Below are positions 9,020-58,777 of a stretch of DNA of 64,000 nt, piece after piece. Both the position numbers and the translations under genes were made by a program. The notes below the pieces were generated by a model that searched no databases, was not told where the DNA came from, and worked only from the letters and a program-made list of their open reading frames with translations. Every line of letters starts with the position of its first letter. Position 1 is the first letter of the stretch. This DNA is from an uncultured bacterium (GTDB taxonomy: Bacteria; Babelota; Babeliae; Babelales; Vermiphilaceae), in the NCBI GenBank assembly GCA_963702025.1, contig OY969699.1, positions 416,001 through 480,000 of the forward strand, given 5' to 3'.

Positions 9020-9033
9020 TATCTTTACTCCAT

Positions 9034-10206
9034 TTATGGTAATTTCTGTATCAATTGGGCATATGTTTTAGCACCACATGCACGTGCTTTATCAATAGCT
9101 TCTTGAATCATAGGATCATTTTGAAATTGCTCAAAAGTTGCCAAAAGCATATCCAATCCAGTCATTTTTGTTTTATTTTGGAGAGTGAATATCCAATTGA
9201 TATCAGCGCCGGCATTAATTATTCTATTAATAGTCTCAATGCTACAATATATTATAAACATGCTGAGAAATGGTTTACAAATTGTTGAATTAAGCGGGAA
9301 CATGCACTGCACCAGTGCGCTATGATCAAGTAATAACCCTATAATAGCATCTATATCCATAGGAGATTTTTCGGGCGAATCTGCGATTTTATTTGTATAT
9401 GCAATAAACGCCAACGTTGCGGCTTGTTGTGGTTTAAGAGAATGCTTCAAGAGAAAATTAATCAATTCGTAGTCATCATTTTCTATAACTTTCTCCCACA
9501 TTATTTCAATACTTATGTTCTTGCCTTGATTTAAATATGATTTTATTCTTTTCAGGACATTTATCGAATCGCACACGGGGTATCGTTTGCTGTCTTGGGT
9601 AAATATTTCAATTAGGTGATCACACAAAGATTCTTTTTGTCTCTTGCTCAGAGAGTCATTCTTGAAAATTATAACGTAAATCAATGCTTGAATTGCTCTA
9701 TCGGATAATCCTGCCGTTTTCTTGGTCAGAAGTTCATCGATTTTCTCTTTAATTGCATCAAATGTTGTTGACGATTTCAAATGAGACTCTAAAGCGGCTA
9801 TCAATAGGCTTGAGGATCCCTTTATTTCATCAAATTGTAAGATTGATTCAATATTTTTTTGGCAAAATTCCTCAATAAGCTTTTGCACCGTTATTTGTGC
9901 ATCCGAAGCGAGAGCTGTTTTTTTTCTAATTATATGAAGCAGCTCAAGTTTAGCAGCAAATGAAAGGTTATGATTATCAGCGATCAGGCAAGCGGCAGGA
10001 AGATAGCTACAGTCGTCTAAAGCTTTAATATTCTCTAAAATAGTAATTTTATCTGTTTTTTCGAAAAAGGGTGCTATTTGATCTTGCAATTGAGCAATTT
10101 GCGCTTCTTTTTGCTCAATTCGCTCTTGTTCTTGTGTTTTCATGCCGAAAGTATAAGCAGGAATAAGGCATAAAAAAACCATGCTCAAGCGATTAAAAGT
10201 ATTCAT
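9034..10206 (-). CDS. Secreted helical protein with degenerate C-terminal ankyrin repeats
   Basis: TFG-MK after signal peptide; IINAGADIN, TGLD, ARACGAKT. Confidence 0.6.
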   Translation of the reverse strand: MNTFNRLSMVFLCLIPAYTFGMKTQEQERIEQKEAQIAQLQDQIAPFFEKTDKITILENIKALDDCSYLPAACLIADNHNLSFAAKLELLHIIRKKTALASDAQITVQKLIEEFCQKNIESILQFDEIKGSSSLLIAALESHLKSSTTFDAIKEKIDELLTKKTAGLSDRAIQALIYVIIFKNDSLSKRQKESLCDHLIEIFTQDSKRYPVCDSINVLKRIKSYLNQGKNISIEIMWEKVIENDDYELINFLLKHSLKPQQAATLAFIAYTNKIADSPEKSPMDIDAIIGLLLDHSALVQCMFPLNSTICKPFLSMFIIYCSIETINRIINAGADINWIFTLQNKTKMTGLDMLLATFEQFQNDPMIQEAIDKARACGAKTYAQLIQKLP

Positions 10207-10271
10207 AAAACCTCCATTTCTAGGTATTTAGTAGGATTATCTATTCTAGAATAACACTCTTTACAATAATG

Positions 10272-10890
10272 TCAAATAGGCATTTTGGCCAATCTCTTCT
10301 TGGGATGATGCCGAGAGATGTGTGACCTGAGTCCTGAAGGCTGCTTGCATTTAGTAGGGCAATAATTGCACGTGAGTTGAGGGGGGAAATGAATCAACTC
10401 ATGCTCCTTGCAGGCCCACTTAGTTTTGAAGTTTTTTTGGCATATTGAGCATTCAAATGGACCTTGTTCTGAGTGGGTGATTAGATGCTCATTAAGTCGT
10501 GATTTGCATGAAAAGGTACGGTTTGGACAATCGAGGCATGAATGAACTATAGCATAAGCTTTTTGTTTAGGGTTCATGCGTTCTTGGTCGCGATGAGCTT
10601 CGTGGACCGCTTCTGTGTGTCTCCGAACCTGTTCAGGTGTGCAAAACCTTTTTTGTGCAAAAAGCGCACTGATGTTCAAGCTTCAGTGCTTGGAGAGGCG
10701 ACAATTTTTCACTCCTTACTTCTAATATCGCCAATGGAAGAATTGAAGCGGGCGGCGTTATTTCAAACTCATGATTATCTAATTTGTTGTTCAGTTGATC
10801 AGTTAAGTCCATGCTCACTAAGAATGATGGGATAGTAATAATTAACATTGTTACCATAAATCTCATATTTCTCCTTGCAAGATATTTCAT
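10272..10890 (-). pseudogene. Secreted 4-finger C2H2 protein split by a +1 frameshift in a 6-nt homopolymer (10649-10654)
   Basis: Removing one base joins HQCAFCTK to RFCTPEQVRRHTEAVH and restores finger 1; three further fingers follow. Confidence 0.8.
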
Positions 10891-43120: not shown

Positions 43121-44437
43121 TTACTTAATGTTAGGAAGTTGCCGAACTGATAAACTGCGTTCAGGATTAGAATTATACCAAATATATTTTCCATTGCTGC
43201 TAAAGAATTTGTTGCGCTCGAATGGATCTGAGGATGGTGATGGCGGTGCCTCGAAATCACCGGTAGCCACTATATCGCCGTTGGTATTATCAATTACTAA
43301 TTTTTTGGTAGAAGTATCGACGATGATATGGCGCGGTGAAGCATAGAAAAGATTTATGAGCGGAGAGTCTAAGTTGAGCGTGATGGTCCCCTTGTTTTTT
43401 GGATCTAGATTTCTTGATTGAAAAATAAGATCTTCTCCATTTGCGGTAATTGAATGAGAAAAATCGAGTGAAATAAATCCTTTTGTGATCGAATTGTTTT
43501 TCCAGGTGGAATCAGTTGAGCCAGCACTAACATTATAAACAGCGCCTTGATCTTTTTGATTGATGAGTAATTTGGTAGCAAGAGCATTAAATGCACACTG
43601 AGTAAGCGGAGAATCTGGCGCAGCAAGTTGGATCATATGCAATGTTTTAAATGCGCGGTCCAATAGTGCAATTTTTTTATCTGTTTGCTGTATCATGATA
43701 ATGCTGCCATCGGGTGAAAATGCCTGCAAATATCCGCAGATTATTTTAACCTTTTGGTCGGATAATAACTTGCCGAACTTTTTAATCGGGTAGAATTGTG
43801 ATGCATCATCAGAACGGGAAACGATATATTCGCTTTGCGGATCTTGAAGAGAAATATTTTTGTAAGAGCCCAATTTGTGCTTTTTACCCGATGAAATCTC
43901 AATGACCGTAACTGAATCATCATTAATTTTTTCTAAAAGATATTTGCCATCATACGTAAAATTTTCTCCACCCACCAGACGATCGCCGAGATTAACTACT
44001 TCCTTGCCCTGCGTATCCCAAACCGTTTTATTATAATGGAGTTCTTGCCCTAATGCTCTTTCTGCATAAAATTGGGTCCCTTGACGATTCCATGTCACGT
44101 TCCAACCGGAATAGGGCAGAGTCCAAAGATAGTGTTCTTTATCAATTTTATAGAGATGAAGTTTGTCATGCTTATCCCTAATTGCGATATGTATACCATC
44201 TGGAGCAATGTAGGGCTGCATTTGACAATCTTGCACGTTAAACTGTGCAAACCCATCTTGCATATTTGGATCGGCTTTTGCCTTGTCTTGTTTAGGGCTA
44301 AAGGCTTCCTTTATGGTATCTATTTCCTCAAGCGCATCAGCCACTCCGGCGATTAGTGTACCTTCTACGATTTTTTCCATGCTAGTAATAGGGAGATAAG
44401 ATATAAGCAATGCCAGAGAAAGAATGATTCTTTTCAT
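43121..44437 (-). CDS. Secreted beta-propeller (WD40-like) protein
   Basis: ITS-MEK; repeated PDG/FTYDGKYL/FSPDGS/FSSNGKYI blades. Confidence 0.8.
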   Translation of the reverse strand: MKRIILSLALLISYLPITSMEKIVEGTLIAGVADALEEIDTIKEAFSPKQDKAKADPNMQDGFAQFNVQDCQMQPYIAPDGIHIAIRDKHDKLHLYKIDKEHYLWTLPYSGWNVTWNRQGTQFYAERALGQELHYNKTVWDTQGKEVVNLGDRLVGGENFTYDGKYLLEKINDDSVTVIEISSGKKHKLGSYKNISLQDPQSEYIVSRSDDASQFYPIKKFGKLLSDQKVKIICGYLQAFSPDGSIIMIQQTDKKIALLDRAFKTLHMIQLAAPDSPLTQCAFNALATKLLINQKDQGAVYNVSAGSTDSTWKNNSITKGFISLDFSHSITANGEDLIFQSRNLDPKNKGTITLNLDSPLINLFYASPRHIIVDTSTKKLVIDNTNGDIVATGDFEAPPSPSSDPFERNKFFSSNGKYIWYNSNPERSLSVRQLPNIK

Positions 44438-44518
44438 TGGAATCCTTTTTTTTAATAACCATTAAATTTGTCTTAAGTCTTATAAAAATTATACGGGCAA
44501 GTCAAAGAAATGGTAACT

Positions 44519-45406
44519 TTAGTCGCCCAAAAGACTCGTAACATATTCAGTTGCATCAAATGCTTTAAACTGTTCCGGCTGTTCGCCATAAGAAATATAG
44601 GCGATAGGTATTTTGAGTTCATTGCAGATGGCAAAGACAATGCCTCCCTTACCCGTGCCGTCCATTTTAGTTAAAATGACTCCATCAATGGGAGTGCTTT
44701 CATGGAACAATCGCGCTTGATCAAAGGAGTTTTGCCCGAGCATTGAGTCGATAGTCAACAAGGTGGTGATTTTTTGGTGGGGCAGTTGTGCGGTGATAAC
44801 CCGCTTAATTTTTTCCAGCTCTTTCATTAAATTTATTTTTGTTTGCAAGCGGCCTGCCGTATCAATAATCAGCACATCATAGGTGCCCTGTTTGAACTTT
44901 TGAATGCCGGTAAAAATAACCGAGGCAGGATCTTGGCCCTCGGCACCCACCACAATATCAGCGCCTAATTTTTGGGCCCATTGCGCCAGTTGCTCGGTGG
45001 CAGCGGCCCTGAATGTGTCGGCAGCAACAAAAAGTACCCGTTTGTTTTCTTGCTTATATTGGTATGCCAATTTTGCCGCGGCAGTGGTTTTTCCGCTGCC
45101 ATTAATGCCAACTAACATGAACAAAGTACTCTTTGGCTCATACGGTTCGGCTTGCACTATCTTTTGTAATTCTGCTTGCAACAAAGATTGTAAATCAGCC
45201 CCTTCTTTGAGGCTACCATGCTTCCAGGCATCAGTGACGGTTGTCATGATTGCACGGGTTGTTTTTATGCCCGTATCGGCGCTGAGAAGAATTGTTTCTA
45301 GTTCTTTGAGTGCCTGCTCATCAATGGGGCGGGCAAAAAGCGCTTTGATTGGTGAAGAAACGGTGTTGTATATTTTGGTGAATGTTTTTTTAAAGAAACC
45401 GAACAT
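44519..45406 (-). CDS. ftsY: Signal recognition particle receptor FtsY (NG domain only)
   Basis: GINGSGKTT, DTFRAAA, DTAGR, TKMDGTGKGG. Confidence 0.96.
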   Translation of the reverse strand: MFGFFKKTFTKIYNTVSSPIKALFARPIDEQALKELETILLSADTGIKTTRAIMTTVTDAWKHGSLKEGADLQSLLQAELQKIVQAEPYEPKSTLFMLVGINGSGKTTAAAKLAYQYKQENKRVLFVAADTFRAAATEQLAQWAQKLGADIVVGAEGQDPASVIFTGIQKFKQGTYDVLIIDTAGRLQTKINLMKELEKIKRVITAQLPHQKITTLLTIDSMLGQNSFDQARLFHESTPIDGVILTKMDGTGKGGIVFAICNELKIPIAYISYGEQPEQFKAFDATEYVTSLLGD

Positions 45407-45434
45407 CTCTGTAGCCTATGGTATCGCATTTTCC

Positions 45435-45520
45435 CCGTTCGCTTAGAGCGAAGCGTTAGCCGAGTCGAGAAGTTTTTTTATACCTCTCAAATCGAGCTTC
45501 GCTCACCTTCGAGAAGGATG
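45435..45520. repeat. Degenerate family A palindromic element upstream of ftsY
   Basis: CCGTTCGCTTAGAGCGAAGCGTTAGCCGAGTCGAGAAG...CGAGCTTCGCTC. Confidence 0.6.
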
Positions 45521-45615
45521 AAGATGATTTATATGTTTTTAAAGTTAGTAATTCATAGATTAGATCAAGTCTTGATCAATAGCTAGTGCAAGTAATGTTT
45601 TCTTAATTTATCCAT

Positions 45616-47026
45616 TTATGAAATTAAACAAGTTTCTTTTTGTGGCGGTTTTGGTGAGAATCGTTCTTGCAGAATCTCCTGAATGCGGGTATTTTGCGAA
45701 GCTTTGAGTACTTTGAGTAAATCTTTATTCAATGGTTCATTATTGGTTTGTTGCTTTTGCAATGTAATAAGAGCCAGCAGTTCATCAGGATTACTATGAT
45801 TATGTAATGCTTTATGGGTAACATGTTTATAAATATAAATTTCAAATGAATAAGTGCCAGGAGAAACAAAATAAAGTGCTTTATGAGTAGTAATGCCTCT
45901 AAAATACTTTTTATGGTTTTGGGCTAGATGTTCAAGTGCATCTCTTGAACATGAAAGTTTATTATTCGTACGCAGATAAAAATAAGTCTCGCCATCAGAG
46001 CATAGTGCTTGGGAATAATTTAAAATTTTATAGGTATTGGTATTGGTATCAATGACCATTGATTTACTTACTGGTTTTTGTCCTACTCGTTGATGGCTTA
46101 AATCAACATGAATCAGGCGGGGGTTTTCATTTCCTTCATCTAAATAAAGGGCGGGTGTTATTGAATTTACAAAGCTATTGTAATATGAAGTATTATAATG
46201 CAATGGCCCTGATCGTATAATGATTTCATCGTATGGCGGCGTGCAAAGAGCCCTTACCGGTGAGTTTTTTTGGTCGTAATATTTATTAAAATCAGCTGAA
46301 CTTGCAGGAATAGTAATAATTTTTTTAGGAATTTCTATAGCAAATTCACAATCGGCATTAGTGATAGTTTTGCTTAAAAATAAATGATGTATCGGTAACT
46401 CTGCTTAAATGCCCCAGATGATAATGGCCCCCTTCATGAAGCTTTATATATTCTTTTGTTTCTAAATCCAAGAGAAATACTTTTTGGGTAACCTGATGTA
46501 AAGGAGAGCGCACTAAAACATACCGCTTGCAAGGAAGTTCTTCGCAGAATAAAATATCACGAGCATCATTTTCCGGTTCATCTACCAGAGTTAGTCGGTC
46601 CGTTTCTAAATCTAAAAAGCGAATTTTGCGCTCGAAATAACTCATCATAACCAGATAATTTTTAAAGAGCTCAAGCTGAGGCATTATATCCAGGTTACTA
46701 CATACTTTTTTGGCTTCAGAGTTATTTATTTCTTCAAGTAATGGTGCTTCATTGTTAAAAATAAAATGATGGAAATGTGCTTGAATATCTTCCGGAAGAG
46801 CTTTTATTTTTTTAATAAGAGCAACCAGATCGGTAGCCCTGGTTTCTTTTGAGGTAAATTGGGCGATAATATTTTTGATTGCGATATCCATTAAGCTCGC
46901 TATGGTTGCCGGTTTATCTTTATCTTCTTGAGTAAGCTGAATTACTTTTGGCTCTGGCATCTCCATTGCCGTTGCCGCAAGTGGGCATAAGCAGGCGAGT
47001 AAAATGAGTGTTCTTAATAATTTCAT
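45616..47026 (-). pseudogene. Secreted BC-box-like/propeller-like protein with CaaX (CLIS), frameshifted at an A5 run (46376-46380)
   Basis: Removing one base gives an open frame SFILSKTITNADCEF... into the 45616..46203 ORF; both halves align with paralogs 47043 and 48371. Confidence 0.8.
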
Positions 47027-47042
47027 AATTCCTCCATTTTGG

Positions 47043-48353
47043 TTATGTGATCACGCACCTTTGTTTTTTATCGGTCTCTTCATTTTCATTAATCTCTTTT
47101 TGAATGGTGACGGACCCCTTGGCGGTCATAACCACTTCAGGCTCCTTTGAGAAGCATTCTTTAACAATTTCTTGAATACGCTCATTTTTTGAGTTTTTGA
47201 GTGTTTTAAAGAGATGTCGATTTAATACTTCATTATTGTTTTTTTGTTTTTGCAAGATAATAAGCGCAAGAAGTTCTTGGAGATTACTATTTTTTGTCAG
47301 TGCTTTATGGGTAATATATTTATATACATCTCCTTTTTTATCGATCATAAATAGATAGGTATCATCTATGAGTAAAGCAGGGTTAGCTTTCTCGGGAATT
47401 TTAATCTCTAGATCAAATGGCATAGATATACATTTGATTTCTTGAGAATTTAATTGCGGAATAGATAAGCAGCTAAGCTTTTTTTTGATAAAATAAAAAC
47501 CATGCGCTGCATCTGAAGTTATTACTGGTTGTTGCTTAATGATTGTATATGTTTGTGTCTGAGTATCAATAACTATCAAAAAATCAAATAAATCGGATTC
47601 TAGGTTTGGAATAACTATATTGGTGGTATTAAGACCAATTAGTATTTGTTGAGTAAGTTGATATTTTCTAGTGCAAGTAACTTGTATTAAATGTGGGTTA
47701 GGTTTATCTGCATCTAAATAGCGTACCGAGCATGAAAATTGTTGCGGGTCAATAGCGTCGTATGAAGTATCAAAAATAATTTCGGGTTCATTTACTTTTT
47801 TGACTGTGACACGAATAGCGCCATCTACTATACCCACTTCAATTTTTGTATTTTTATTAACTTCTGTTGGTGTTTCAAGCTTAACAGAATCAGGAAGCGT
47901 GATGGTGAGATTTTCAACGTTCCCGGTATCTCTATTTAATGCTTGCAAGATTATATTTCCATTTGATGCAGCAATTAAATTTTCTATGTGATAATTTCCA
48001 TTACTCAGTCTTGCGATATATTGAGGATCAAAATTATTAATCTCTTCAAGTATTAATGTTTCATGTTTAAATAAATAGACATACAAATAATCGACCAGAT
48101 CTTGCGGAATTTTGTTAATTTTTTCATAGAGCGCAATAAGCTCTTTTGTTGTGCATTGTTTTTCTTTAAATTTTTTAAATAAATTGTTGCACACAATATC
48201 TATTAATGGAGAAACTTTAGGAGTTTCTATCGTATTAGATGATTGCATAAGTGGTATATAGATTGGTTTATCATTGTTCGCCGGTATCTCCATTGCGGTT
48301 GCCGCAACCGGGCATAGGCCGGCGAGTAAAGTTACTATTCTTAATAATTTCAT
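47043..48353 (-). CDS. Secreted paralog with BC-box-like motif, shared C-terminal domain and CaaX (CVIT)
   Basis: ATA-MEIP; VSPLIDIVCNNL..IPQDL; THKAL...ELLALI..QK; ends RCVIT. Confidence 0.78.
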   Translation of the reverse strand: MKLLRIVTLLAGLCPVAATAMEIPANNDKPIYIPLMQSSNTIETPKVSPLIDIVCNNLFKKFKEKQCTTKELIALYEKINKIPQDLVDYLYVYLFKHETLILEEINNFDPQYIARLSNGNYHIENLIAASNGNIILQALNRDTGNVENLTITLPDSVKLETPTEVNKNTKIEVGIVDGAIRVTVKKVNEPEIIFDTSYDAIDPQQFSCSVRYLDADKPNPHLIQVTCTRKYQLTQQILIGLNTTNIVIPNLESDLFDFLIVIDTQTQTYTIIKQQPVITSDAAHGFYFIKKKLSCLSIPQLNSQEIKCISMPFDLEIKIPEKANPALLIDDTYLFMIDKKGDVYKYITHKALTKNSNLQELLALIILQKQKNNNEVLNRHLFKTLKNSKNERIQEIVKECFSKEPEVVMTAKGSVTIQKEINENEETDKKQRCVIT

Positions 48354-48370
48354 AAATTCCTCCACTGTTT

Positions 48371-50089
48371 TCATGATATCGGACAACCGAAAAGACTTTG
48401 CGATTCTTCGTTAATTTCTTCTATTTCTTCTTCATTTTCTACGTTCTGATTATGAACGAGTAATGATGCAACTGATTCCTGTGGTTGCAGCGGCGCGTAG
48501 CGTTCTTTTAGTATTTCTTTTATGCGATAATTTTTAGAGCAATTGAGTATGTTCCAAACATACGGATCAAGTTTTTTATGATTAATGTGCTCTTTTTGAG
48601 CGATAATCAATGCGAGTAGCTCTTCGATAGTAGAATCTTTTAACAGTGTTTTATGCGTAGCATACTTATAGAGGCATGTACCATCTATAAAAAATACATT
48701 TTCTCCATTGGGTGAGAGCCCCATCGGTTTTTGTGCAAATGTACTAAATGATCCGATATGTGATGTTATTGTTTGAGATTGCTTGTCCTGGGTTGTGCCA
48801 TGAAGATAATCATGGCATGCCAACTTTTTGCCATAGCGAGTAAATCCTAACAATGTGTCAGCCGTGATACAGATTTCATCGCAGTTGTTGACTGGTATGA
48901 AGGCGCAGGTGTCTTGATGAATAAATGCATTAGTGGAAATGGCAATCCAGTTTTGTATGTTTTTTAAAGACATAAAGTGTTTTGTTTTGAGCTGTGCACG
49001 TTTGATAGAAGAAGGATCAATATATACAGTTTTTGTTATGTTACCTTTTTTAAATGAAAAGGAAACAGATTTATCAGTATTTTCTTTAAAAGACGTTTTA
49101 TGTAAAAAATTGTTATTTTTATGAAGGCTTTCAGCAAGTCGAGTTAAACTTTCTTGTATGGAAGTATTCCGATCTATAGTAGTAATCGTTTTGGTGAGTT
49201 TTTCCTGATCCACAAAATACATATCCATTTCTTCTGCGTCCGGCTTATTAGCGTAGAAATTATTATCAAGTGCTATAGTAGTTACTTGGACGGTAGTATT
49301 AGGAAGTATTGTTTTGATGCACAAAGAGTGGCCATCTTTGGTAAAATATGCCTCTTGATAGGGTTCTTCTTGTTGCCAGAATAGACACTTTCTTTTAGTT
49401 TCCAGATCAATGATGTATAAGGAAGCTTTTACTGCTTCCGTCTGAGAATTTTTTTTACAAAAAAGAGCAATGTATCGCTTATTTGGTAACAAAATAGCCT
49501 CACAGGGGTAACCGGTAGTAGTTTTTCCTTCGGTTATGCTGTTATCTGCATAGTTTATGATGGCAAACTTACCCAAACCGCCATATATAGTGGCAGTATT
49601 GAAGAAGATTGATATATGGCTATCATCCAAAACATAAATCGCAGAATACTGATGCGTATGAGTTACAAGTTTATCGGTTAACAACAGTGGTTGTGAATCA
49701 TTTATCGATTCTAAAAGTTCAGCATGATATTTGAGCAGATATGCACACAAAGAATCTTTTATATCATGGGGCAAAAGCTTAATGTTATTGAGTAATGCAA
49801 TAAGTTTTTTGTTGCTCGCTGCATCAGATTTGAATTGATCAAGTAATTGTTGGCATGCTATTTCTTTTAAACTGCGCATTCCCGGTTCAAATGGTTTGGC
49901 ATGAATAACATCAGCCGGATCTTTTGGTATTGGCTCGGGCATTTCCATTGCGGTTGCCGCAAGTGGGCATAAGCAGGCGAGTAATGCTAATATGAGTCCC
50001 GTTCGCTTGCCAGCCTTCGTTAATGGTATCTCTCGACTCGCTTGCGCTCGCTCGAGATGAACGGCTGATAATATTCTTAATAATTTCAT
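48371..50089 (-). CDS. Secreted paralog with BC-box-like motif, propeller-like core and CaaX-like end (CPIS); palindromic element inserted in signal peptide
   Basis: MRSLKEIACQQL..LPHDIK; THKTL...ELLALI..QK; ends GCPIS. Confidence 0.78.
   Translation of the reverse strand: MKLLRILSAVHLERAQASREIPLTKAGKRTGLILALLACLCPLAATAMEMPEPIPKDPADVIHAKPFEPGMRSLKEIACQQLLDQFKSDAASNKKLIALLNNIKLLPHDIKDSLCAYLLKYHAELLESINDSQPLLLTDKLVTHTHQYSAIYVLDDSHISIFFNTATIYGGLGKFAIINYADNSITEGKTTTGYPCEAILLPNKRYIALFCKKNSQTEAVKASLYIIDLETKRKCLFWQQEEPYQEAYFTKDGHSLCIKTILPNTTVQVTTIALDNNFYANKPDAEEMDMYFVDQEKLTKTITTIDRNTSIQESLTRLAESLHKNNNFLHKTSFKENTDKSVSFSFKKGNITKTVYIDPSSIKRAQLKTKHFMSLKNIQNWIAISTNAFIHQDTCAFIPVNNCDEICITADTLLGFTRYGKKLACHDYLHGTTQDKQSQTITSHIGSFSTFAQKPMGLSPNGENVFFIDGTCLYKYATHKTLLKDSTIEELLALIIAQKEHINHKKLDPYVWNILNCSKNYRIKEILKERYAPLQPQESVASLLVHNQNVENEEEIEEINEESQSLFGCPIS
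49994..50068. mobile_element. 75-bp family A palindromic element inserted in frame, with TAATAT direct repeats
   Basis: CCGTTC...GAACGG inverted ends; TAATAT at 49988-49993 and 50069-50074; net 81 nt = 27 codons absent from paralogs. Confidence 0.85.
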
Positions 50090-50107
50090 AATTTCCTCCA
50101 TTATCTT

Positions 50108-50611
50108 TTAACTATTTTTCTTGATTTCGCGAAGCGGGATGCTCAGATGTACTGCGTGAAGCTTTTTGCCGCCGATGCGATAAGTATTTTCTTTTGTTGA
50201 AATCGGCAGATTAGGATCAAATTTTTGAATGAACCGTTTGTAGGATTCAAGTAAGTCATGCTGCGAGATGCCATCATCGGTTGGCACAACTTCCCATTCA
50301 ACAAGATTACCTTCGTGAGTTTTTATATCTTCTAAGCATTTCTTGAATAATAAAAAACCGGTCCCTTTTTTGCGATATTGTTTTTGAACATAAAATGAAT
50401 CGATTGTCCAGTTTGTGGGTAACATACAATTTTGACTATAGCAAATACTGCCTACTTCAGCATGAGCAGCGCGCGCAGAAATAACATAATTATCCCATAG
50501 TTTATCATAGACTGGGCTTGATATGATCACCGGATCGGTTTGAGCCGCTTTTTCCATTGCCAATGTTTGGAGTGCAAGAGTGCCGACAATGAAAAATAAT
50601 AAATGTTTCAT
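50108..50611 (-). CDS. Secreted GNAT family acetyltransferase
   Basis: TLA-MEK; IDSFYVQKQYRKKGTG acetyl-CoA motif A. Confidence 0.8.
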   Translation of the reverse strand: MKHLLFFIVGTLALQTLAMEKAAQTDPVIISSPVYDKLWDNYVISARAAHAEVGSICYSQNCMLPTNWTIDSFYVQKQYRKKGTGFLLFKKCLEDIKTHEGNLVEWEVVPTDDGISQHDLLESYKRFIQKFDPNLPISTKENTYRIGGKKLHAVHLSIPLREIKKNS

Positions 50612-51807
50612 TATTCTGCTCCCTTATTATTTTTAGACCTTTTTGCTATCTCTTGATCTTCAAGAGCAGGATTATCTTTTCGTTTAGCGCTATTATCCGT
50701 TGGAGTGTTTATTTTATCGTCACAACATGTTGCCATATGTTCTTCGAGTGCTTCCTTTGTTTGATGTACTTTACTGCAATTGCGGCATTGTAAGTGTATC
50801 AATTTATGCTCATACAGGGTTCTCTGAGTGGAGAGAACCTTGCCGCATTCATCACAAGTTCTTTCAGATTGAGATGGATTTTTGTCAGGGTTATGTTTGT
50901 TTAATGTGTGGTTATTTAAGATCCACTTGTCGGTAAATCTAAGTATACACTCCTCACATTTATACGGTTTAGCCTCCTGGACTGGCAGGTCATATTTTTC
51001 ATAATGTTCACCACGAATATGCGATATTAAATATGTGTTTGAAAACTGTAGATGACACCATTTGCATATTTTAGTATTTTTTGCGTCATCTTTAATTTGT
51101 TGCAGCTTATTTTCAACCATCTCTGGCTTTTGGGTTCTTCCCGAATTGTTATTTTCCTCAGACGCTATTTTGAGTTTATTGGAATTATAAAAAAGTGTTT
51201 CATCGCTATCTAAGTCATCTGAATCGATTCTTTCCTCAGATGCTCTGGGTTGGGCTAATTTTAAATTTTGTGGTGTTTTTTTCCGAGAGACTTCAGCATT
51301 TTCAAGCGAATTAATATAGAGCGTGGTGTTATTATCATCGGATGTTGATTCATCGTTACCGTGTGCCCTTTTCATATGCCGCGTTAGACCGTATCGTCTT
51401 GCAAAAGTTTTGGTACAATGCTCACATGGTAACTTTTCGGTATGATTTTTTTTGTGTTGATTAAGTTCCCATTGGGTACAAAATCGCAAAGTGCATTCAT
51501 CGCAGGCAAAAGCGAGTGCCTCTTCTTGCGTAAGTCCAATTTCTTCATAATGCTTCTTTAAAACATGGTTTTTTAAATAGTCATTCTTGCTAACTTCTGT
51601 TCCGCACCATTTGCATATATTGGTACCTTTGGTGTCTTCTTCAATCTTTTTTAATGCTTCATTGTGAGCCTTGATTTGGGTTGTCCTTGTGCATGCTGCA
51701 ACAAGTGCGGCAATCGTTTCTGGTCGTTTTTCCATTGCTCCAAGTGGGAAAAAGCCAAATAAACTAAAACAACTGATTAACAAAGTTTGGTCAATAGTTG
51801 AATTCAT
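50611..51807 (-). CDS. Secreted multi-C2H2 zinc-finger protein (about 7 fingers)
   Basis: LGA-MEK; CKWC, CDEC, CEHC, CKWC, CEEC, CDEC, CRNC fingers; HTEKLP linker; C-terminal KRK...KRSK. Confidence 0.9.
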   Translation of the reverse strand: MNSTIDQTLLISCFSLFGFFPLGAMEKRPETIAALVAACTRTTQIKAHNEALKKIEEDTKGTNICKWCGTEVSKNDYLKNHVLKKHYEEIGLTQEEALAFACDECTLRFCTQWELNQHKKNHTEKLPCEHCTKTFARRYGLTRHMKRAHGNDESTSDDNNTTLYINSLENAEVSRKKTPQNLKLAQPRASEERIDSDDLDSDETLFYNSNKLKIASEENNNSGRTQKPEMVENKLQQIKDDAKNTKICKWCHLQFSNTYLISHIRGEHYEKYDLPVQEAKPYKCEECILRFTDKWILNNHTLNKHNPDKNPSQSERTCDECGKVLSTQRTLYEHKLIHLQCRNCSKVHQTKEALEEHMATCCDDKINTPTDNSAKRKDNPALEDQEIAKRSKNNKGAE

Positions 51808-51847
51808 ATAATTCTCCATTTTTTTACTTATTACTTTTTACTTCTAC

Positions 51848-52882
51848 TTAATTGTGCAATGGTATAGTTGCTGCAGTGCCAACACCAACTAATGCTGAAA
51901 CATTTGCAGAATGCTTGCGGTTATGAGCGATAAGGGCCGCTAAACCGCCCAATGCCAATGAGCCTCTTTCTATCCATGCTGATTCATTCTGTGCTTGCAG
52001 TTGATTTATCAAGCCGTTGATTGTGTTTCGATCTGAAATTTGTTGGTTGGCTAGATTTCTCATTGAAAGTTCATGATTATTTAATGCTTGTCTTGTACTG
52101 CTTTTATAAGCTAACAATCCGTTTGCTGCTTCTTGCATTTCTTGCTTGGTTGCAAATTTTTTCTCTGTCGCATTTATTTGATTAAGAAGCTCTTGTTCCC
52201 GTTGGGCCGCCAATTGAGCGTGGCATTGCAATTCATTAAACCGTTGTGCCAGTTGTTCATACGATTCTTTGAACATGGTAACGTTTTCTTGCGGGGCTTC
52301 GGTTTTAGCAGCCGTTGGCTTTGAGCTAAATACCCAACTTAAAAAACCGCCCTTATTATCTGCGGGAGCTTCCGTTTTACGTTGATTACAAAGAAGGCAT
52401 GATTGCAAGGTTTTATTGTTTGCAAAACATTTTTCATGAACCGCATGATTGCATTTATAAATATGTGGTTTGGTGCCATCATCAACCGGTTGTGCACAGA
52501 CAATGCATAACTCTTTTGCCACATTAATCGCACTATGCGGTTTAGGTTGTGGGGCACTTTGATTGCCGGCTTCAAGATCTGGTTCAGTGGATTCTTGTTG
52601 ATCCGGATAGTGGACCGTTTGATAAATAATGGTAGGAAATTCTTCCGGGTTTTCTTTACCCGTTTCAATGTCCTTGTTTTCGCGAAGAATGGCTTTGCAG
52701 TCTCGGCATCTATTTGCTCTGAAAGATAAAAGTGAAAAGGTTAAAGAATTTGAGTTAGGCTTTTCTTGCCCACAGGTGCCGCATATATTTTGGGAAGGCA
52801 TTTCCATGGCTGCTACTTGAGCAGGGATTGCAAGAGCGCCTACAATACCAATTGAAGAAAGAAATAAAACGCGTGATAACAT
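51848..52882 (-). CDS. Secreted RING-H2 finger protein with coiled coil and C-terminal hydrophobic segment
   Basis: VAA-MEMP; CIVC-x14-CNHAVHEKC-x9-CLLC. Confidence 0.8.
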   Translation of the reverse strand: MLSRVLFLSSIGIVGALAIPAQVAAMEMPSQNICGTCGQEKPNSNSLTFSLLSFRANRCRDCKAILRENKDIETGKENPEEFPTIIYQTVHYPDQQESTEPDLEAGNQSAPQPKPHSAINVAKELCIVCAQPVDDGTKPHIYKCNHAVHEKCFANNKTLQSCLLCNQRKTEAPADNKGGFLSWVFSSKPTAAKTEAPQENVTMFKESYEQLAQRFNELQCHAQLAAQREQELLNQINATEKKFATKQEMQEAANGLLAYKSSTRQALNNHELSMRNLANQQISDRNTINGLINQLQAQNESAWIERGSLALGGLAALIAHNRKHSANVSALVGVGTAATIPLHN

Positions 52883-52947
52883 AATAAACTCCATTATCTA
52901 AGGGGGGTATAAAAATATCTATTAGTACTAATTCTACCTAAAAATAG

Positions 52948-53538
52948 CTATTTGTCAATAAAGGATTGCAGGCGTTGGGCAAATAGTTTTAACCTGCGGT
53001 AATCATTGCCAACCAGTAGTGAATAAGACTGTAAAAGCTCGCAAATGGCCTCATTTTTAAGTGTTTTTAGGGTATTTTGTTGTTTTAACAGGGCCAAAAG
53101 CAGTTCATCGATGGGTAAAGGGCCTGAAAAGCCAAAAAGAAGGGGAAGATAGCTGTTTTTTGCAAAAAAGAGTCTTGCCATCTCATCGTCGGCAATGCGC
53201 AAAAATGAATGGATTTTGGGGGGTTCAGGAGGGGTGATATAATAGATCCTTCCTTTATCTTGATATCCCATGCACAGGCAGGAAAAGCTGGTTTTTAAGA
53301 ATTCAAAAATCTGAGGCTGCTCAGCCCGCAATTCTTCATGGGTTTTTTGATAGGCAAAGGGATAGCGGGTGGGATCCATAGAGCCGGTTTGAATCTGGTA
53401 TACCAGGCCAAAAAGAGGACGATTGCCATTTTGGGCGATCACTAACGAGCCAAACTGTGGCATGATGTCCCATTGCCAGCATTGGCCCAGGAATGTTTGG
53501 AGGGAACTTTCTATGATTTCCGCGCAAGGTTTGGTCAT
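52948..53538 (-). CDS. HAS-barrel domain protein
   Basis: AEIIESS, P.FGSLV, GLVY.I.TGS.DP.R, EQPQIF, PP.PPKIH. Confidence 0.7.
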   Translation of the reverse strand: MTKPCAEIIESSLQTFLGQCWQWDIMPQFGSLVIAQNGNRPLFGLVYQIQTGSMDPTRYPFAYQKTHEELRAEQPQIFEFLKTSFSCLCMGYQDKGRIYYITPPEPPKIHSFLRIADDEMARLFFAKNSYLPLLFGFSGPLPIDELLLALLKQQNTLKTLKNEAICELLQSYSLLVGNDYRRLKLFAQRLQSFIDK

Positions 53539-53552
53539 GATTTATGTCTTTT

Positions 53553-54545
53553 CTAAATGTTCTTAATTTTTTCTATAACTTTATTTGCTAACGTCACACA
53601 AAAATTCTTTGTTGTTAATTTTCGGCCGGTTATTTCTTCCAGTACCTGAATATTTATGCCTTTTGCTTTTTCCAAAGCTTTTCGGGCTTCTTTATCAGAA
53701 ATGGTATGCTTTCTTTGCTGTTCAGGTAATACGGAAAATAATTCTGGCGGAAGCAATGAAAAATAGGTTGATTTATCTTTTTGTAATGCTTCAGCTATTT
53801 TTCGTGGCTGGCCAGTGACCGTTGTATGTTTAAGCAAAAGAATCATAGCAGTAATTTGATTACACCTTATAGCGATATCAAGTGGTGTTTCCTTTTTATT
53901 GTCTTTAGAGCCCAAGTAAACAGCCGGATTGGCTAACAAGCTGGGAACTAGTTCAGAGCATTTGCCGCCTGCGCACAGATGCAATGGTGTTAAATTATTG
54001 AAAGAGCTCGGGATGCTCACGCTAATTTTGGGATGTGCAAGAAGCAGCTTTGCGATTACAACATTTTCTTGCATAATTGCTTCAAACAACGGCGTTTCGC
54101 GGTTCACCTGAATGTCCTCATATGAGAGTAACAAACCCACCATTTCAGAATTGTTTGTTTTGGTTGCTAAAAATAACGGACTATAGTATCCAGCATGCTC
54201 AGCATTTATATTTGCACCACTGCTCACCAGAGTTTTAACTTTCTCTTTTTTATTATGTTGAATAGCATTCAATAATTGCATATCTAAACGGCGTTGATCG
54301 GCTTCTTTTTTCCGCTCTTCGCGGCTTGATTGGCGGCTCGAAGAAGAGGAAGTGTTTTCACTTTCATTACTTTTAGATGAACTGCCTGAGTCTTTAGATG
54401 AATCATCTGAAGATTCGGATGAATTTGAGTTATCGAATAACATTGGATTATAAGCCATTGCATTCAAGTAAGTTGTATTTGTTGCGAGTAACACTATTAA
54501 GAAAAATATATTTATAGGCCTGAGAGTTGATAAGAAATATGACAT
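53553..54545 (-). CDS. Secreted ankyrin-repeat protein with Ser-rich N-terminus and C-terminal F-box-like motif
   Basis: LNA-MA; poly-Ser; SPLFLA, ETPLFEA, TPLHLC, ETPLDIA; STYFSLLPPEL. Confidence 0.88.
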   Translation of the reverse strand: MSYFLSTLRPINIFFLIVLLATNTTYLNAMAYNPMLFDNSNSSESSDDSSKDSGSSSKSNESENTSSSSSRQSSREERKKEADQRRLDMQLLNAIQHNKKEKVKTLVSSGANINAEHAGYYSPLFLATKTNNSEMVGLLLSYEDIQVNRETPLFEAIMQENVVIAKLLLAHPKISVSIPSSFNNLTPLHLCAGGKCSELVPSLLANPAVYLGSKDNKKETPLDIAIRCNQITAMILLLKHTTVTGQPRKIAEALQKDKSTYFSLLPPELFSVLPEQQRKHTISDKEARKALEKAKGINIQVLEEITGRKLTTKNFCVTLANKVIEKIKNI

Positions 54546-54625
54546 GCTATTTTCCTTAGCAAGTGAGAATTTATTTTTTTTTATAGTCTATCATAATTGA
54601 TCAAGTTTTCTTTTTAGTTACATAA

Positions 54626-55087
54626 TCATTGTAGGCACGTAATAAGACTCTTTATCTTTACAGCATTCATATATCGGTTATAAAGCAGCTGCTTATGATC
54701 CATTGATTCCTTACTGCCCTTTTTAAGCAGTTGGTAGGCAGCCCAAAATAAGAATACCGTAGCCGCCTCATATGCCCTCCTTGGCTCAAGCCCGTCAATA
54801 AATCGAATTCCTAAAGTTGTAAGCGCTGTTGTAAGACATAGTGCGCCTCCGAGAAAAGCTAGAGGAAAAAATGGCTTCAATTTATTAAGTTCAATTTCTC
54901 CCCTTCGATAATTGACCATTTCACTGGCCATAATCAAATAAGCAGGGTCTGAAATCTTGCATCCATTTTCTTCAATTAAAGTCTGCAGCGTCACAAGATC
55001 ACTATCGAATATTGCAGTCTCAACCAAATCCCCATATACACTCTGAATAACCATCATTACAACAACTATTAAACTTATTTTTCTCAT
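54626..55087 (-). CDS. Secreted protein with hydrophobic hairpin; paralog of the N-terminus of 58834
   Basis: DLVETAIFDSDL / DLIEKAILESNL; SEMVNYRR / SEVLLRRR; YMNAVKI / YENALKI. Confidence 0.7.
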   Translation of the reverse strand: MRKISLIVVVMMVIQSVYGDLVETAIFDSDLVTLQTLIEENGCKISDPAYLIMASEMVNYRRGEIELNKLKPFFPLAFLGGALCLTTALTTLGIRFIDGLEPRRAYEAATVFLFWAAYQLLKKGSKESMDHKQLLYNRYMNAVKIKSLITCLQ

Positions 55088-55135: not shown

Positions 55136-56481
55136 TCAATGGTTCGGACATTTTTAACATCTGACAACTCCGGTTTCTATTACACTTTTTATCCCAGGGT
55201 GGAATTTAATCAAACTCAGGTCCAACCCTAAGATTGAAAAAATTAGATTTACCAGCATTTCATTATAGTTTCTCCTTTTGTGGCTTTGCATAGAAAATGG
55301 CGCTCTTTCATTGGTACCAGCCCCCGCTTCCGTCTCTTGAATTTTGGTCAAAAGAAGAGCGGTCGCTGAGGCATTTAAGTGGGCATGTATTTTTTCTTTA
55401 CTGCGGACTTGGAAGCCCAACAAATTGTTTTCCATCACGAAAGATGAACTCAATCTGAAAGCGTGAGCTATAGGTAACATGGATCTCCTGAGCGCTCAAA
55501 GTCAAATCGGTAGAGAACATGAGTACCAGGCCTTGCTTATTTTTACGCGTACGCACTAGACAAGCAACCTTAACCGTACACTTGAGATTTACACTATAAA
55601 AAGTTCCTTCATATAAATCATCTCCATCCTCAGTTGCGCATACAAAAGAGTAACTTTTCAAATCTTTCACATCAACTTTATCTCCATATTTTTTTGGCCG
55701 ACCTCTTCCTCCTTTTTTCTCAAAATTGAGGAACCGCAAATTAGCATCGCAACGCAACTTGCTTACTACGTGATAGCCGCATTTGCGAGCCATAGTGACA
55801 AACTTTTTGTTGGCAAAGTACGCATCAACAATGAGTAGCTTAATACTCAGAGGCAAGCCATGCAATTTCATCTTATTGAGCTGCTGTTCTGCGCAGTCAA
55901 CATAAAAATCCATTCGATTTGCTTCAGAAGCTCCAATCAACTTTTTGATTTCATCTTTTGGTGGTGTTTGGATCACCACGAGGGGATAAGCCGTATTTTT
56001 CTTAATATCGATAAGCGCGAATCCATTTCCTTCAAGACCCCTTTCAGACTTGCCGCTGGAGCCATTCCAAAATGATTCCAGGCCATAGGTTTTCTTGCCA
56101 GACTTTTTTATAAAAAACGGATCATAAGCTATTCCATAATGCCCATTTTCATCGATAATTTTGTTCACTGTCAAGCAATTGAATTGCAAGTAATCAAATG
56201 GCTTTTCAAAATTCCGAGAGAACGTTTTTTCGTCATAAGATGCATATCGCGCCATGTTACGAAAATTCATTCTTCCCCCCATCGATAATATCGTGCCAAG
56301 CATGCTTTCGATAAATTTTTTCTGAGGCTTATAAATTCCTGTCATTTTTTCTAAAATTTCCTGTATAATTTTCATTGCCGCATTTCAATCTTTTTTTAGA
56401 GGAAGTTTGATTGACTCCACTAATTATGGGTATGCGGTTTAAATTTTCAAGTTACTTTCAAAAAACTGTCCGAACTATTGA
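55136..56481 (-). mobile_element. Insertion sequence (IS701/ISH3/IS4-like DDE) with TIRs and a 5-bp TSD
   Basis: TCAATGGTTCGGACATTTTT vs TCAATAGTTCGGACAGTTTT; ATATA at 55131-55135 and 56482-56486. Confidence 0.85.
55154..56375 (-). pseudogene. Frameshifted DDE transposase
   Basis: IAYD..FI.KSGK, IVDAYF, GRGRPKKYG, Y..RFQIEF.FRD.KQ..GL; continues QVRSKEKIHAHLNAS in another frame near 55410. Confidence 0.88.
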
Positions 56482-56681
56482 ATATAAAAGAGCTAGAATT
56501 AAATGCTTGGAAATACGGACAAAAAACAACTAATGGAAAAAATTGGAAAGTATTTAAAAGTAATGAAATAATAGGCGCCAACTCTGGTAAAGAAACATGT
56601 TTTATGAGAGTTGAATGTAGTGCCAACACTATACATGGTCATCCAATTTTAGAAAGTCAATATTTGGAGCTCATTAAATGA
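56482..56681 (+). pseudogene. Orphan polymorphic-toxin C-terminal fragment
   Basis: IGANSGKETCFMRVE....IHGHPI nuclease-tip-like ending; no genuine start; ATGA overlap with an immunity-like gene. Confidence 0.55.
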
Positions 56682-57046
56682 AATCTAATAAAAAATTTAT
56701 TAAAAATCTAAAGATTCTAGATGGAATAATAATTTACGAAGATTTTGATATATCAGAGATGATTCCTTTTGAAAGCCAAAAGTATTCATTTAAAGAAGAC
56801 ATGCTTCAAATAAAATTTAACGATCGCTTCATTTTAGATGTAGGTTGGCAGCCGGAATTTGAAAAAAATGGATATTTTATCATCCGCGTTATTCTTGATA
56901 ATGATTGGCTTAATCCATTATTAGAAGCAAAAGCCCGTACGCTCAACGACTTGAAAAAAATAATAGAAAAGAGCGTTATCTTTGTAAAACAAGAAAAAGA
57001 AAAAAATTTACCTTATCGCAATATTGAATTTGAAAAATATGAATGA
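56678..57046 (+). CDS. Putative toxin immunity protein (CdiI-like)
   Basis: Acidic 122 aa; EDMLQI....LDVGW.PEF...G.F.I.VI...DW..P. Confidence 0.65.
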   Translation: MKSNKKFIKNLKILDGIIIYEDFDISEMIPFESQKYSFKEDMLQIKFNDRFILDVGWQPEFEKNGYFIIRVILDNDWLNPLLEAKARTLNDLKKIIEKSVIFVKQEKEKNLPYRNIEFEKYE

Positions 57047-57312
57047 ATTGTAGGCAGGATATTTATTACTTGAGACATTGTTTAGACGGAGTCAAGGCGA
57101 AAAATACTTTGAAATCAATCTTTTATAAGAATGAAAATATAATCGAACTTGCATTAGATGGATGGTCAAATGGACAATTTATTGATGCAAGCACTAAAGT
57201 TTATGATTGCGGTCGATTTATAGGCATTGACTTAATAGATAATCCTACAACGAAAATTAAAATTGTACTTAATGAAACTATGGACTCTTTTAGAACAGTA
57301 TTTCCGTGTTAG
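57043..57312 (+). CDS. Orphan toxin C-terminal fragment (RNase-tip-like)
   Basis: RH...KSIF...YDCGRFIG.D..DNPTTKIKIV....RTVFP. Confidence 0.55.
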   Translation: MNCRQDIYYLRHCLDGVKAKNTLKSIFYKNENIIELALDGWSNGQFIDASTKVYDCGRFIGIDLIDNPTTKIKIVLNETMDSFRTVFPC

Positions 57313-57320
57313 GAATTTTA

Positions 57321-57625
57321 ATGGGAACAAATGTATCTGCAATGTCTTACAGCCCTAAAAAATGTATCGAAATTGCTCTATTTAGTGATGAGGAAATAAA
57401 AAGACTTAGAGAAATAGAAAACCAAAACGTGAAATTGGTTTCCTTAATCGATCCTTAGGATAATACTTTTTTTAATAAAAAACAGATAAAAATGCTTTAT
57501 GGTCAACTTGATTTAATTATCACTGAAGGATGCAGCGATAGCTGTTAAGAACTCTTGATAGCTTAAAGAATGCTATTGATAAAATGCCAGATGAGTATAG
57601 CTACCTTGTTTTTTTAGGAGATTAA
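57321..57625 (+). pseudogene. Disrupted immunity-like paralog (internal stop plus frameshift)
   Basis: MGTNVS...LIDP*DNTFFNKKQI...YSYLVFLGD*, same motif as the three following ORFs. Confidence 0.7.
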
Positions 57626-57993
57626 TGGGAATGTCTTTTTGTATTATTAAAAGAATTGATGAGTTTGGAGAAATAGAGAAAATTTTTGAAAACATTGATT
57701 CTGGTTTTATTAAAAAAGTTAATGTATTTGCAGAGCGATTAAAGTTACTTCTACTTTCTTCGATAGATGGCGAGGACTGTAATATTTATAACATTATGCA
57801 ATTACAAGAAATAAAAAATGAATTGGCAGTTTTGCAAGCAAATATAAATATAGACAATTCCGGAATTCAAGTACTTCTGAAAGTTGTCGAAGAAACTATT
57901 GCAGAGGGCGATTACACGTATTTGAAAATATGTTCTATTGACAAAGATGATGAAATTATTGCGCCATTCCAACAATTTTTTAAGATCAAATAA
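57625..57993 (+). CDS. Putative immunity protein, paralog family
   Basis: LSSIDGEDCNIYNIMQL..IKNEL...YTYLKI. Confidence 0.65.
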   Translation: MGMSFCIIKRIDEFGEIEKIFENIDSGFIKKVNVFAERLKLLLLSSIDGEDCNIYNIMQLQEIKNELAVLQANINIDNSGIQVLLKVVEETIAEGDYTYLKICSIDKDDEIIAPFQQFFKIK

Positions 57994-58129
57994 ATCGTAA
58001 AAGTAATGACTTTTAAAGATACTATACGTTGTTAGAGAATGCATAGAATCAGGTAACTTCAAAACTATTATCGTCTTTGACTGAAGATGGAAAACGCATA
58101 GCCACTATGTTTCTAGTATAAGGATTAAA

Positions 58130-58465
58130 ATGTCGATTTATATATATATCTGTACTAAAAATAGTGTTTTTTTTGACTATGATAATCTACCATTAAATCT
58201 CGATCAGAAATATTTTGGCGCAATCGATACTTTTGATTCGAATTTTTATCTCAATATTAATCAACAGGATGTATATTTAATAAAATTTATTAATCATTCT
58301 AATAATGTTGTATTTAACAAAAAGCAAATGATTCGACTGCAAGGGGAAATAAATTCCCTTAAAAAAGGGACATTGGTAAAAGAATCAATTCTTATATTGC
58401 TTGAAACAGCAATCTCTTATGGGCTCCAGCAAGATGATGTCTATTTAAAATGCGAGATTGACTAA
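58130..58465 (+). CDS. Putative immunity protein, paralog family
   Basis: IKFINHSNNVVFNKKQM..LQGEI...VYLKCEID. Confidence 0.65.
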   Translation: MSIYIYICTKNSVFFDYDNLPLNLDQKYFGAIDTFDSNFYLNINQQDVYLIKFINHSNNVVFNKKQMIRLQGEINSLKKGTLVKESILILLETAISYGLQQDDVYLKCEID

Positions 58466-58777
58466 ATGATTAATCTAAAAATTATTGATGAATACAATGA
58501 GCTAATTCAAGATTATGGGCAACTAAACGTTCAGGATGTATTACGAGCTATAGATTATGCTGAAAAAAATAGCTTAATAAATATGAGTTGCGTTGATGTT
58601 TTTCAAGATACTTATTTCAATGCTAGCCAATTAAAAGACGTAAAACGAGAAATAGATATTTTGCAAAAAGTATCTCAAGATAATCTTAAAAACTTAATCG
58701 ATGTGCTTAAGCAAGCTATTGAGTTGATTTTAAAAGAAGGCGTTTTCAATTATCTCAAATTTGAAATTCGAGATTAA
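58466..58777 (+). CDS. Putative immunity protein, paralog family
   Basis: MSCVDVFQDTYFNASQL..VKREI...NYLKFEIRD. Confidence 0.65.
   Translation: MINLKIIDEYNELIQDYGQLNVQDVLRAIDYAEKNSLINMSCVDVFQDTYFNASQLKDVKREIDILQKVSQDNLKNLIDVLKQAIELILKEGVFNYLKFEIRD

Follow-up and report, generated by a model that had tools for sequence, protein, structure and literature searches.

Three consecutive minus-strand genes of an uncultured member of the Babelota (Dependentiae), encoding a RING-H2 protein (P0003), a C2H2 multi-finger protein (P0002) and a GNAT acetyltransferase (P0001), probably form part of a young, likely co-transcribed cassette of independent effectors, which are predicted to be exported by Sec and type II secretion and are encoded within a variable island. 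The genes lie in a 64,000-nucleotide stretch (positions 416,001 to 480,000 of contig OY969699.1, assembly GCA_963702025.1), hereafter the window. An initial annotation of this stretch had proposed that they act in the host as a reader of DNA, a writer of acetyl marks and a writer of ubiquitin, perhaps together on chromatin. Most of what it described in the individual proteins was borne out, and the joint function was not. The trio appears to be a local arrangement, and the class of putatively exported C2H2 proteins that we describe across the phylum matters more.

Passages from three reports describe the Babelota as protist parasites with components of a type II secretion system (T2SS; PMC4776705, PMC4378268, PMC6561590), and for Babela they describe the T2SS as the sole secretion system, together with signal-peptide effectors and host-interaction islands (PMC4378268). 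The genome studied here is a single contig of 1.596 Mb and encodes T2SS parts, namely two secretins, two GspF/PilC genes and a GspE above the NCBIfam cut-off.

Results

The three genes head a run of tagged genes in a variable slot

The RING, C2H2 and GNAT open reading frames (ORFs) all lie on the minus strand, where the initial annotation had placed them. They are the first three of six consecutive genes whose products carry a predicted signal peptide followed by Met-Glu (ME), within a variable island between rnhB and ftsY; 15 of the 27 ORFs between ftsY and rnhB are tagged with ME or Met-Gln (MQ). Signal peptides were assigned by a heuristic based on hydrophobicity and small residues, and by this heuristic P0001, P0002 and P0003 each have a signal and an ME start. 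The genes are tightly coupled, as had been noted: at 50611 the sequence TAATG combines the C2H2 stop codon with the GNAT start codon, and the likely C2H2 start (51807) lies 40 bp beyond the RING stop. A predicted sigma-70 promoter (TTGACA-16-TAGAAT, 11 of 12 consensus positions; 52931..52958, minus strand) precedes the RING gene, and the sister locus described below has the same promoter sequence. The site is the best of 34 promoter-like sites in 44400-54700, a total that is itself at chance level (shuffles 32.7 +/- 5.6). From the coupling and the promoter, co-transcription of the run is likely.

The slot is bounded upstream by a HAS-barrel gene (52948..53538, minus strand; Pfam PF09378, E 2e-5), which is found in 77 of 80 family genomes, and downstream by ftsY (44519..45406, minus strand; SRP54, E 6e-71). 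In a sister lineage with 87% DNA identity (locus L039, identical to L038; also a contig of run X5), the order RING, C2H2, GNAT is kept, with protein identities of 79%, about 60% and 92%, respectively. The three further ME-tagged genes of the run (576, 447 and 222 aa; 46358..50101, minus strand) differ there. Against the sister, dN/dS is 0.25 for the RING gene, 0.36 for C2H2 and 0.32 for GNAT, compared with 0.04-0.06 for HAS and ftsY; the trio is under purifying but relaxed selection. Because dS is uneven among the three (GNAT 0.11, RING 0.47, C2H2 0.83), separate gene histories are hinted at.

We surveyed the slot in 48 of the 76 relatives with the HAS anchor, comprising 7 congeners and 41 loci outside the genus. 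The three genes occur together in 0 of these 48 loci, so that the expected conservation of gene order holds for one sister lineage and fails for the full trio elsewhere. Outside the genus the HAS gene directly adjoins ftsY in 11 of 41 loci. The P0001 GNAT family stands beside the anchor in 6 of 7 congeners, as arrays of 4-6 copies in three and as a single gene in three, and in 0 of the 41 others. A congener slot (G006) holds three C2H2 genes and no GNAT, and RING genes are present in the slots of G007 (a different RING) and G009. At the other five C2H2 loci of this genome the nearest GNAT is 21-112 kb away and the nearest RING 25-946 kb, and in the 20 top C2H2 loci across the phylum no neighbouring ORF matched the GNAT profile or the RING pattern. 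The GNAT family is probably the older resident of the slot, given its presence in 6 of 7 congeners, with the RING and C2H2 genes having joined in this lineage.

A divergent C2H2 protein with a conserved bipartite tail

P0002 (50611..51819, minus strand; likely start 51807) has a signal peptide and ME start, C2H2-type fingers in two clusters, an acidic spacer and a tail resembling a bipartite nuclear localization signal (NLS). The estimate of about seven fingers proved exact: seven motifs were counted, the last ending in Cys, and the match to zf-C2H2 (PF00096) is strong (E 4.5e-18, 65 bits against a cut-off of 25.2). The module duplication proposed earlier is equally clear, with aa 56-125 and 239-307 sharing 46% identity over 70 aa (E 7e-22). 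Fingers 1-3 (51361..51615, minus strand; joint at 51111-51728 in run X5) are absent from the sister orthologue, which has fingers 4-7 only and keeps the bipartite tail; a lineage-specific duplication or a loss would account for the difference. Fingers 4-7 (50722..51066, minus strand) form the conserved core, with 70% identity and a dN/dS of 0.27 against L039.

The NLS-like motif KRK-x11-KRSK (50632..50685, minus strand) is present as described and appears as KRK-x10-KKAK in the orthologue. Shuffling P0002 produced the bipartite pattern in 24 of 5000 cases, and 3 of the genome's 272 other tagged proteins have it; the motif is conserved and unlikely to have arisen by chance.

Canonical HTGEKP linkers were not found in P0002, whose linkers measure 15, 5, 98, 15, 12 and 2 aa, with only TEKLP near-canonical. 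Sequence-specific DNA reading by this protein is therefore unproven, and since the linkers are non-canonical it would more probably act by contacts with protein, with RNA or with DNA at low specificity than by Kruppel-type sequence reading. The CKWC finger may pack on the next finger through two Trp (tCWCH2-like); the AlphaFold2 model of P0002, made from a two-row alignment, reached a pLDDT of 37 and was unusable. A complex prediction of fingers 4-7 with the GNAT scored 0.01 against a mark of 0.32. Compared with 60 relatives, P0002 gave only finger-level matches, in 7 of them, and NCBIfam holds no family for P0001, P0002 or P0003. Elsewhere in the window (7834-10679) lies a second cluster of three C2H2 genes with basic patches, two of them with signal and ME.

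Putatively exported C2H2 proteins are widespread in the phylum

PF00096 was matched in 78 of 251 phylum genomes (56 over the cut-off) and in 1 of 14 controls. Twenty loci were picked by strongest match, a choice that favours canonical fingers, and contain 50 complete multi-finger ORFs; 46 of these have a hydrophobic N-terminus by a criterion so loose that many other ORFs satisfy it as well, and a signal with Met tag is present in 32. Adding the three G006 proteins gives a set of 53 finger proteins. Of the 53, 31 contrast with P0002 in having two or more linkers of the HTGEKP type. Outside the fingers, 23 of 53 carry NLS-like motifs, compared with 23 of 159 other tagged proteins and with a shuffle mean of 5.0 (maximum 12); the NLS-bearing proteins are spread over 10 of 19 loci, although paralogues are not independent and inflate the count.

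Up to about eight multi-C2H2 genes with signal peptides stand in tandem among housekeeping genes at L040 (G206:C1:230000-246000), L041, L043, L045-L048, L051 and L054, and many of these genes have HTGEKP linkers and NLS-like motifs. A literature search found no report on C2H2 proteins of Dependentiae or Babelota, although supplements and subscription journals could list such proteins; likewise, the main-text passages on Babelota genomes mention no C2H2 effectors, which supplements could list. The class is thus widespread in the phylum, often in the form of signal-peptide Kruppel-type arrays with predicted nuclear entry, and its members are candidate nucleomodulins that are apparently undescribed.

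A compact GNAT without the helical lid

P0001 (50108..50611, minus strand) was called a GNAT with a signal peptide, and this identification holds: Acetyltransf_1 scores 23 bits against a cut-off of 20.7, and fold matches agree. The AlphaFold2 model (pLDDT 89) contains the GNAT core with no helices ahead of strand 4, so that the alpha1/alpha2 lid is missing. Its closest folds include RimI (Z 12.9, rmsd 3.4 over 126 aa), NatA (12.4) and AcrVA5 (Z 11.3, 24% identity), with Z values tied among RimI, N-terminal acetyltransferases (NATs), small-molecule GNATs and AcrVA5. Among the structural matches listed there was no histone acetyltransferase (HAT) of the Gcn5/PCAF/Hat1 type, an absence that is no exclusion with the rows tied.

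Hallmarks of GNATs, according to the passages seen of PMC4964394, are a P-loop of the form Q/R-x-x-G-x-G/A and a conserved Tyr. The P0001 P-loop R80-K-K-G-T-G85 agrees with this form, and 99% of the 117 aligned family rows have Tyr124, whose position suggests a general-acid role; for both reasons the enzyme is likely to be active. The core, P-loop and Tyr are shared with RimI, NatA/Naa10 and AcrVA5, the last of which is similarly compact (95 aa), whereas P0001 differs from them in its signal peptide and at 10-24% identity, and the tied Z values assign no substrate class.

The family comprises 116 clusters of 140-200 aa among the top 150 matches, of which 110 have a hydrophobic N-terminus. An NLS-like motif was not found in P0001, and none of the 23 GNAT-profile matches longer than 200 aa contains a C2H2 or RING motif. 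Across the 251 phylum genomes the P0001 profile matches in 6 at E<=1e-12, a count that is partly so by construction. About 11 of the genome's 14 GNAT-like proteins carry, as judged by eye, a signal peptide or an anchor at the N-terminus, so that GNATs with predicted export are common in it. The exported compact family offers a further handle on the sorting of exported proteins in Babelota.

A RING-H2 protein with atypical contact residues and a hydrophobic tail

P0003 (51848..52894, minus strand; likely start 52882) has a signal peptide and ME start followed by four parts, two of which had not been described. The first of these is an N-terminal C-x2-C-x21-C-x2-C motif (aa 38-66; 52697..52783, minus strand), likely a zinc ribbon, with a weak DZR match (E 0.005) below the cut-off and all four Cys retained in the L039 orthologue. 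The RING-H2 (aa 130-169; 52388..52507, minus strand) was found where annotated, with the pattern C-x2-C-x14-C-x-H-x2-H-x2-C-x9-C-x2-C. Its eight zinc ligands have C3H2C3 spacing and are all retained in the orthologue; its best PDB match is RNF13 (E 3e-4), though it misses the Pfam zf-RING_2 gathering cut-off of 27.3 (23 bits; orthologue 21.9 bits). The helical region that follows was judged a coiled coil by eye only. The second new part is a C-terminal hairpin-like hydrophobic segment (aa 311-345; 51860..51964, minus strand; Kyte-Doolittle), a possible membrane anchor. Its 13-residue Kyte-Doolittle maximum is 1.92 (orthologue 2.16), compared with 0.3-0.9 for three further RINGs that the genome encodes; the tail is not a classical transmembrane helix, as no window of 19 residues in P0003 exceeds 1.2.

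The Trp (C6+4), Pro (C7+1) and linchpin Arg that we take to be the usual contacts with E2~Ub are replaced by Asn, Leu and Asn in P0003 and by Asn, Leu and Ser in its orthologue, whereas the corresponding residues in these three further RINGs are Trp/Trp/Ile, Pro and Arg. Some active E3s deviate at these positions. The linchpin Arg of RING E3s is treated in PMC8586995, in the passages seen. Because the RING lacks the usual Trp, Pro and Arg and the protein has a hydrophobic tail, a role as ubiquitin writer on chromatin is doubtful, and by eye no NLS-like motif was seen in P0003. We infer instead a membrane-tethered weak E3 or scaffold, rather than a chromatin ligase.

P0003 has a single homologue cluster (79%) in 5.8 billion proteins, gave two weak matches only among 150 relatives and had no usable match in the ESM Atlas. 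RING proteins of G007 and G004 share its signal-RING-hydrophobic-tail layout, a resemblance that does not establish orthology. RING domains were found in 152 of 251 phylum genomes and in 0 of 14 controls. At 73511-76745 of the contig (G000:C1), two adjacent ME-tagged proteins, 37% identical, resemble by eye E3 ligases that combine ankyrin and RING-between-RING (RBR) parts.

The Met-Glu start is a genome-wide tag

That all three proteins are ME-tagged was confirmed, but the tag does not distinguish them, as three more genes of the run carry it and so do 191 of 1867 ORFs genome-wide, compared with 3-43 for 16 control dipeptides. Among 1549 ORFs, 429 have a signal followed by Met; Glu comes next in 202 (7.8-fold over background) and Gln in 39. 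Tagged genes cluster, with 56 adjacent pairs against a shuffle mean of 26 and maximum of 43. Adjacent same-strand ME pairs are spaced by at most 45 bp in 26 of 47 cases and have a stop-start overlap in 4 of 47. The idea of a mark peculiar to the three genes was consequently rejected, since the tag is genome-wide and tight ME-ME coupling common. Also rejected as true tags were the extreme N-terminal MEFIM and MENYM, where ME appears to be the Shine-Dalgarno ATGGAG; database gene calls begin four residues downstream of these ORF starts (398 and 344 aa).

The consensus N-termini of NatB substrates are ME, MQ, Met-Asp and Met-Asn. Downstream of truA and beyond the window, the genome encodes a single-copy, N-terminally anchored RimI-like GNAT (C1:492584-493141; L100:12584-13141), which is found in 122 of 151 phylum genomes in a family-wise pattern. 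In samples of 38-80 kb, 10 genomes that have the anchored GNAT showed signal and ME in 20 of 664 ORFs, and 10 genomes that lack it in 0 of 523; any such ORF was present in 6 of 10 and 0 of 10 genomes, respectively, in samples that are small and include kin that are not independent. The anchored enzyme is a candidate extracytoplasmic N-terminal acetylase for exported proteins, which we offer as a lead only. Its distribution also weakens the earlier argument that a GNAT with a signal peptide must work in the host. The ME mature end gives a handle on how Babelota sort hundreds of exported proteins.

Neighbouring features

Several further observations concern the surroundings of the run. A hairpin-type insert of about 86 bp (49986-50073) lies in frame within the signal-peptide region of the 576-aa ME gene; runs X5 and X7 and locus L039 lack it. 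A stop and a frame change seem to have broken one gene into the 222-aa ME gene and the 195-aa ORF that follows (45616-47026); run X1 has a one-base gap near this place, which leaves a pseudogene or an assembly error. The region 55398-58777 contains an ORF labelled by eye as transposase-like and several short low-GC ORFs, is absent from L039, and shows an 8-base junction difference at 55412 in run X5. In congeners, signal-peptide proteins of about 230-270 aa are encoded 5' of the HAS gene (L027:4351-5750 and 6265-7071; L029:12139-12855; L030:5401-6829), one of which has a weak Kinase-PolyVal match (E 0.006).

Discussion

The export and host targeting assumed by the initial annotation find support, as predictions, in the T2SS parts of the genome, the NLS-like tail kept in the orthologue and the strong sigma-70-type promoter predicted before the run. 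The products of the six-gene run would leave the cell by Sec and then by type II secretion, and signal peptidase would free the Met-Glu N-terminus. The C2H2 protein would then enter the protist nucleus through its bipartite NLS, where it would disturb transcription. The GNAT would use host acetyl-CoA to acetylate some amine, probably on a protein because the lid is lacking in the model. The RING protein may use its tail to associate with a membrane and would be either an E3 that is weak or needs a partner, or a scaffold without catalytic activity.

Several points weigh against a young cassette of independent effectors. The signal-peptide assignments rest on a heuristic, and a basic NLS-like motif is present in 16 of 116 GNAT relatives. 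An enrichment of monopartite NLS in the finger proteins of this genome was rejected, with 1 of 9 carrying one (two of the 9 are RBR proteins). The sister keeps the trio intact whereas its downstream neighbours have changed. C2H2 genes recur at the slot in G006 and G014, and in the latter, from another genus (L045:4270-8869), all four proteins have NLS-like motifs and one has 10 fingers. RING genes in the slot were detected by a pattern that missed the G007 RING and may have missed others. Finally, random placement gave a contiguous RING/C2H2/GNAT trio in 28 of 20000 shuffles over all ORFs (0.14%) and in 138 of 20000 among tagged ORFs (0.7%), frequencies that apply to a triple chosen post hoc.

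Some of these points would suit a lineage-specific pair or trio working away from chromatin, in which the GNAT or RING would be a metaeffector or helper, its role being to modify, protect or time the zinc-finger protein or some other exported product. The C2H2-GNAT overlap, the retention of the trio as neighbours turn over, and the presence of N-terminal acetyltransferases (RimI, NatA) and AcrVA5 among the closest GNAT folds are consistent with such a partnership. We nevertheless consider it unlikely, as GNAT orthologues exist in six congeners whose slots have no finger gene, and stop-start overlaps are found in other ME pairs too.

It also seems improbable that the proteins cross the inner membrane only, with the periplasm, the cell surface or the vacuole lumen as their place of action and their eukaryote-like domains incidental. 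A Sec signal alone delivers only to the periplasm, T2SS cargo would still have a vacuole membrane to cross, and the wide distribution of the anchored RimI-like GNAT suggests extracytoplasmic acetylation by the bacterium itself. However, Cys/His fingers with NLS-like motifs would fit only the reducing cytosol or nucleus of a eukaryote, and such motifs exceed both the other tagged proteins and the shuffle mean in the 53 finger proteins, with the caveat on paralogues given above.

Least probable, and in our judgement quite unlikely, is joint action of the three proteins on host chromatin, as DNA reader, acetyl writer and ubiquitin writer, for although tight coupling under one predicted promoter, the order kept in the sister, the low shuffle probability of the triple and the conserved NLS of the finger protein would agree with it, no other locus of the 48 contains all three genes, the RING has atypical contact residues, a membrane-type tail and no NLS-like motif, P0002 lacks canonical linkers, no Gcn5/PCAF/Hat1-type enzyme was among the fold matches listed (which is not exclusion), and GNAT arrays occur without finger genes and finger genes without GNAT.

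Beyond the cassette of independent effectors, we tentatively propose, with somewhat less than even confidence, that Babelota export C2H2 repertoires with NLS through Sec and T2SS as mimics of transcription factors in protist nuclei, that P0002 belongs to these as a divergent protein sharing a transcript with a protein acetyltransferase that lacks the lid, and that the Met-Glu end is a PEXEL-like export signal or an N-acetylation signal. If this is true, Kruppel-type C2H2 arrays with NLS-like motifs would be a second, independent route beside TAL effectors to reprogram the eukaryotic nucleus, one that would run through Sec and the T2SS in parasites of protists. The idea lends itself to testing, since amoebae or flagellates support the growth of some Babelota.

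Comparison with known systems

For the tag, a partial analogy is found in Plasmodium, where, according to PMC10653839, the mature N-terminus decides export. PEXEL resembles the ME tag in placing export specificity in the mature N-terminus after cleavage, and the analogy extends to the tag only; it differs in belonging to a eukaryotic parasite with other machinery, and there is no evidence of homology. For the RING protein, the eukaryotic RING-H2 E3s RNF13 and RNF38 share the C3H2C3 ligand spacing of P0003, whereas they carry Trp, Pro and a basic residue after the last Cys where P0003 has others.

Within the phylum, the passages on Babela massiliensis (PMC4378268) describe signal-peptide eukaryote-like proteins in islands, RING as a potential E3 and the T2SS as predicted route. 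They differ in mentioning no C2H2 proteins, acetyltransferase or Met-Glu mature end, with 'finger' used only for RING; supplements could list such proteins. For Chromulinavorax destructans and TM6 (PMC6561590, PMC4776705), the corresponding passages report signal peptides in 44% of coding sequences, Sec, a T2SS with two gspD copies, and ankyrin, WD40, F-box, LRR and TPR proteins; their main texts differ in naming no zinc-finger effectors, with zinc mentioned only for a transporter.

Bacterial nucleomodulins such as the TAL effectors and the U-box E3 NleG5-1 (PMC7819608) are likewise exported and placed in the host nucleus by prediction, some by NLS, and some are E3s. The passages of that review include no C2H2 or GNAT proteins and treat mostly type III effectors, in contrast to the predicted Sec signal here. 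In Cardinium, an endosymbiont, eukaryote-like zinc-finger proteins are proposed as regulators of host transcription (PMC12560110); the passages concern two short proteins (86 and 203 aa) in two strains and describe no signal peptide or NLS and no phylum-wide arrays. These two Cardinium proteins, and nucleomodulins in general, are the nearest reports to the Babelota C2H2 class.

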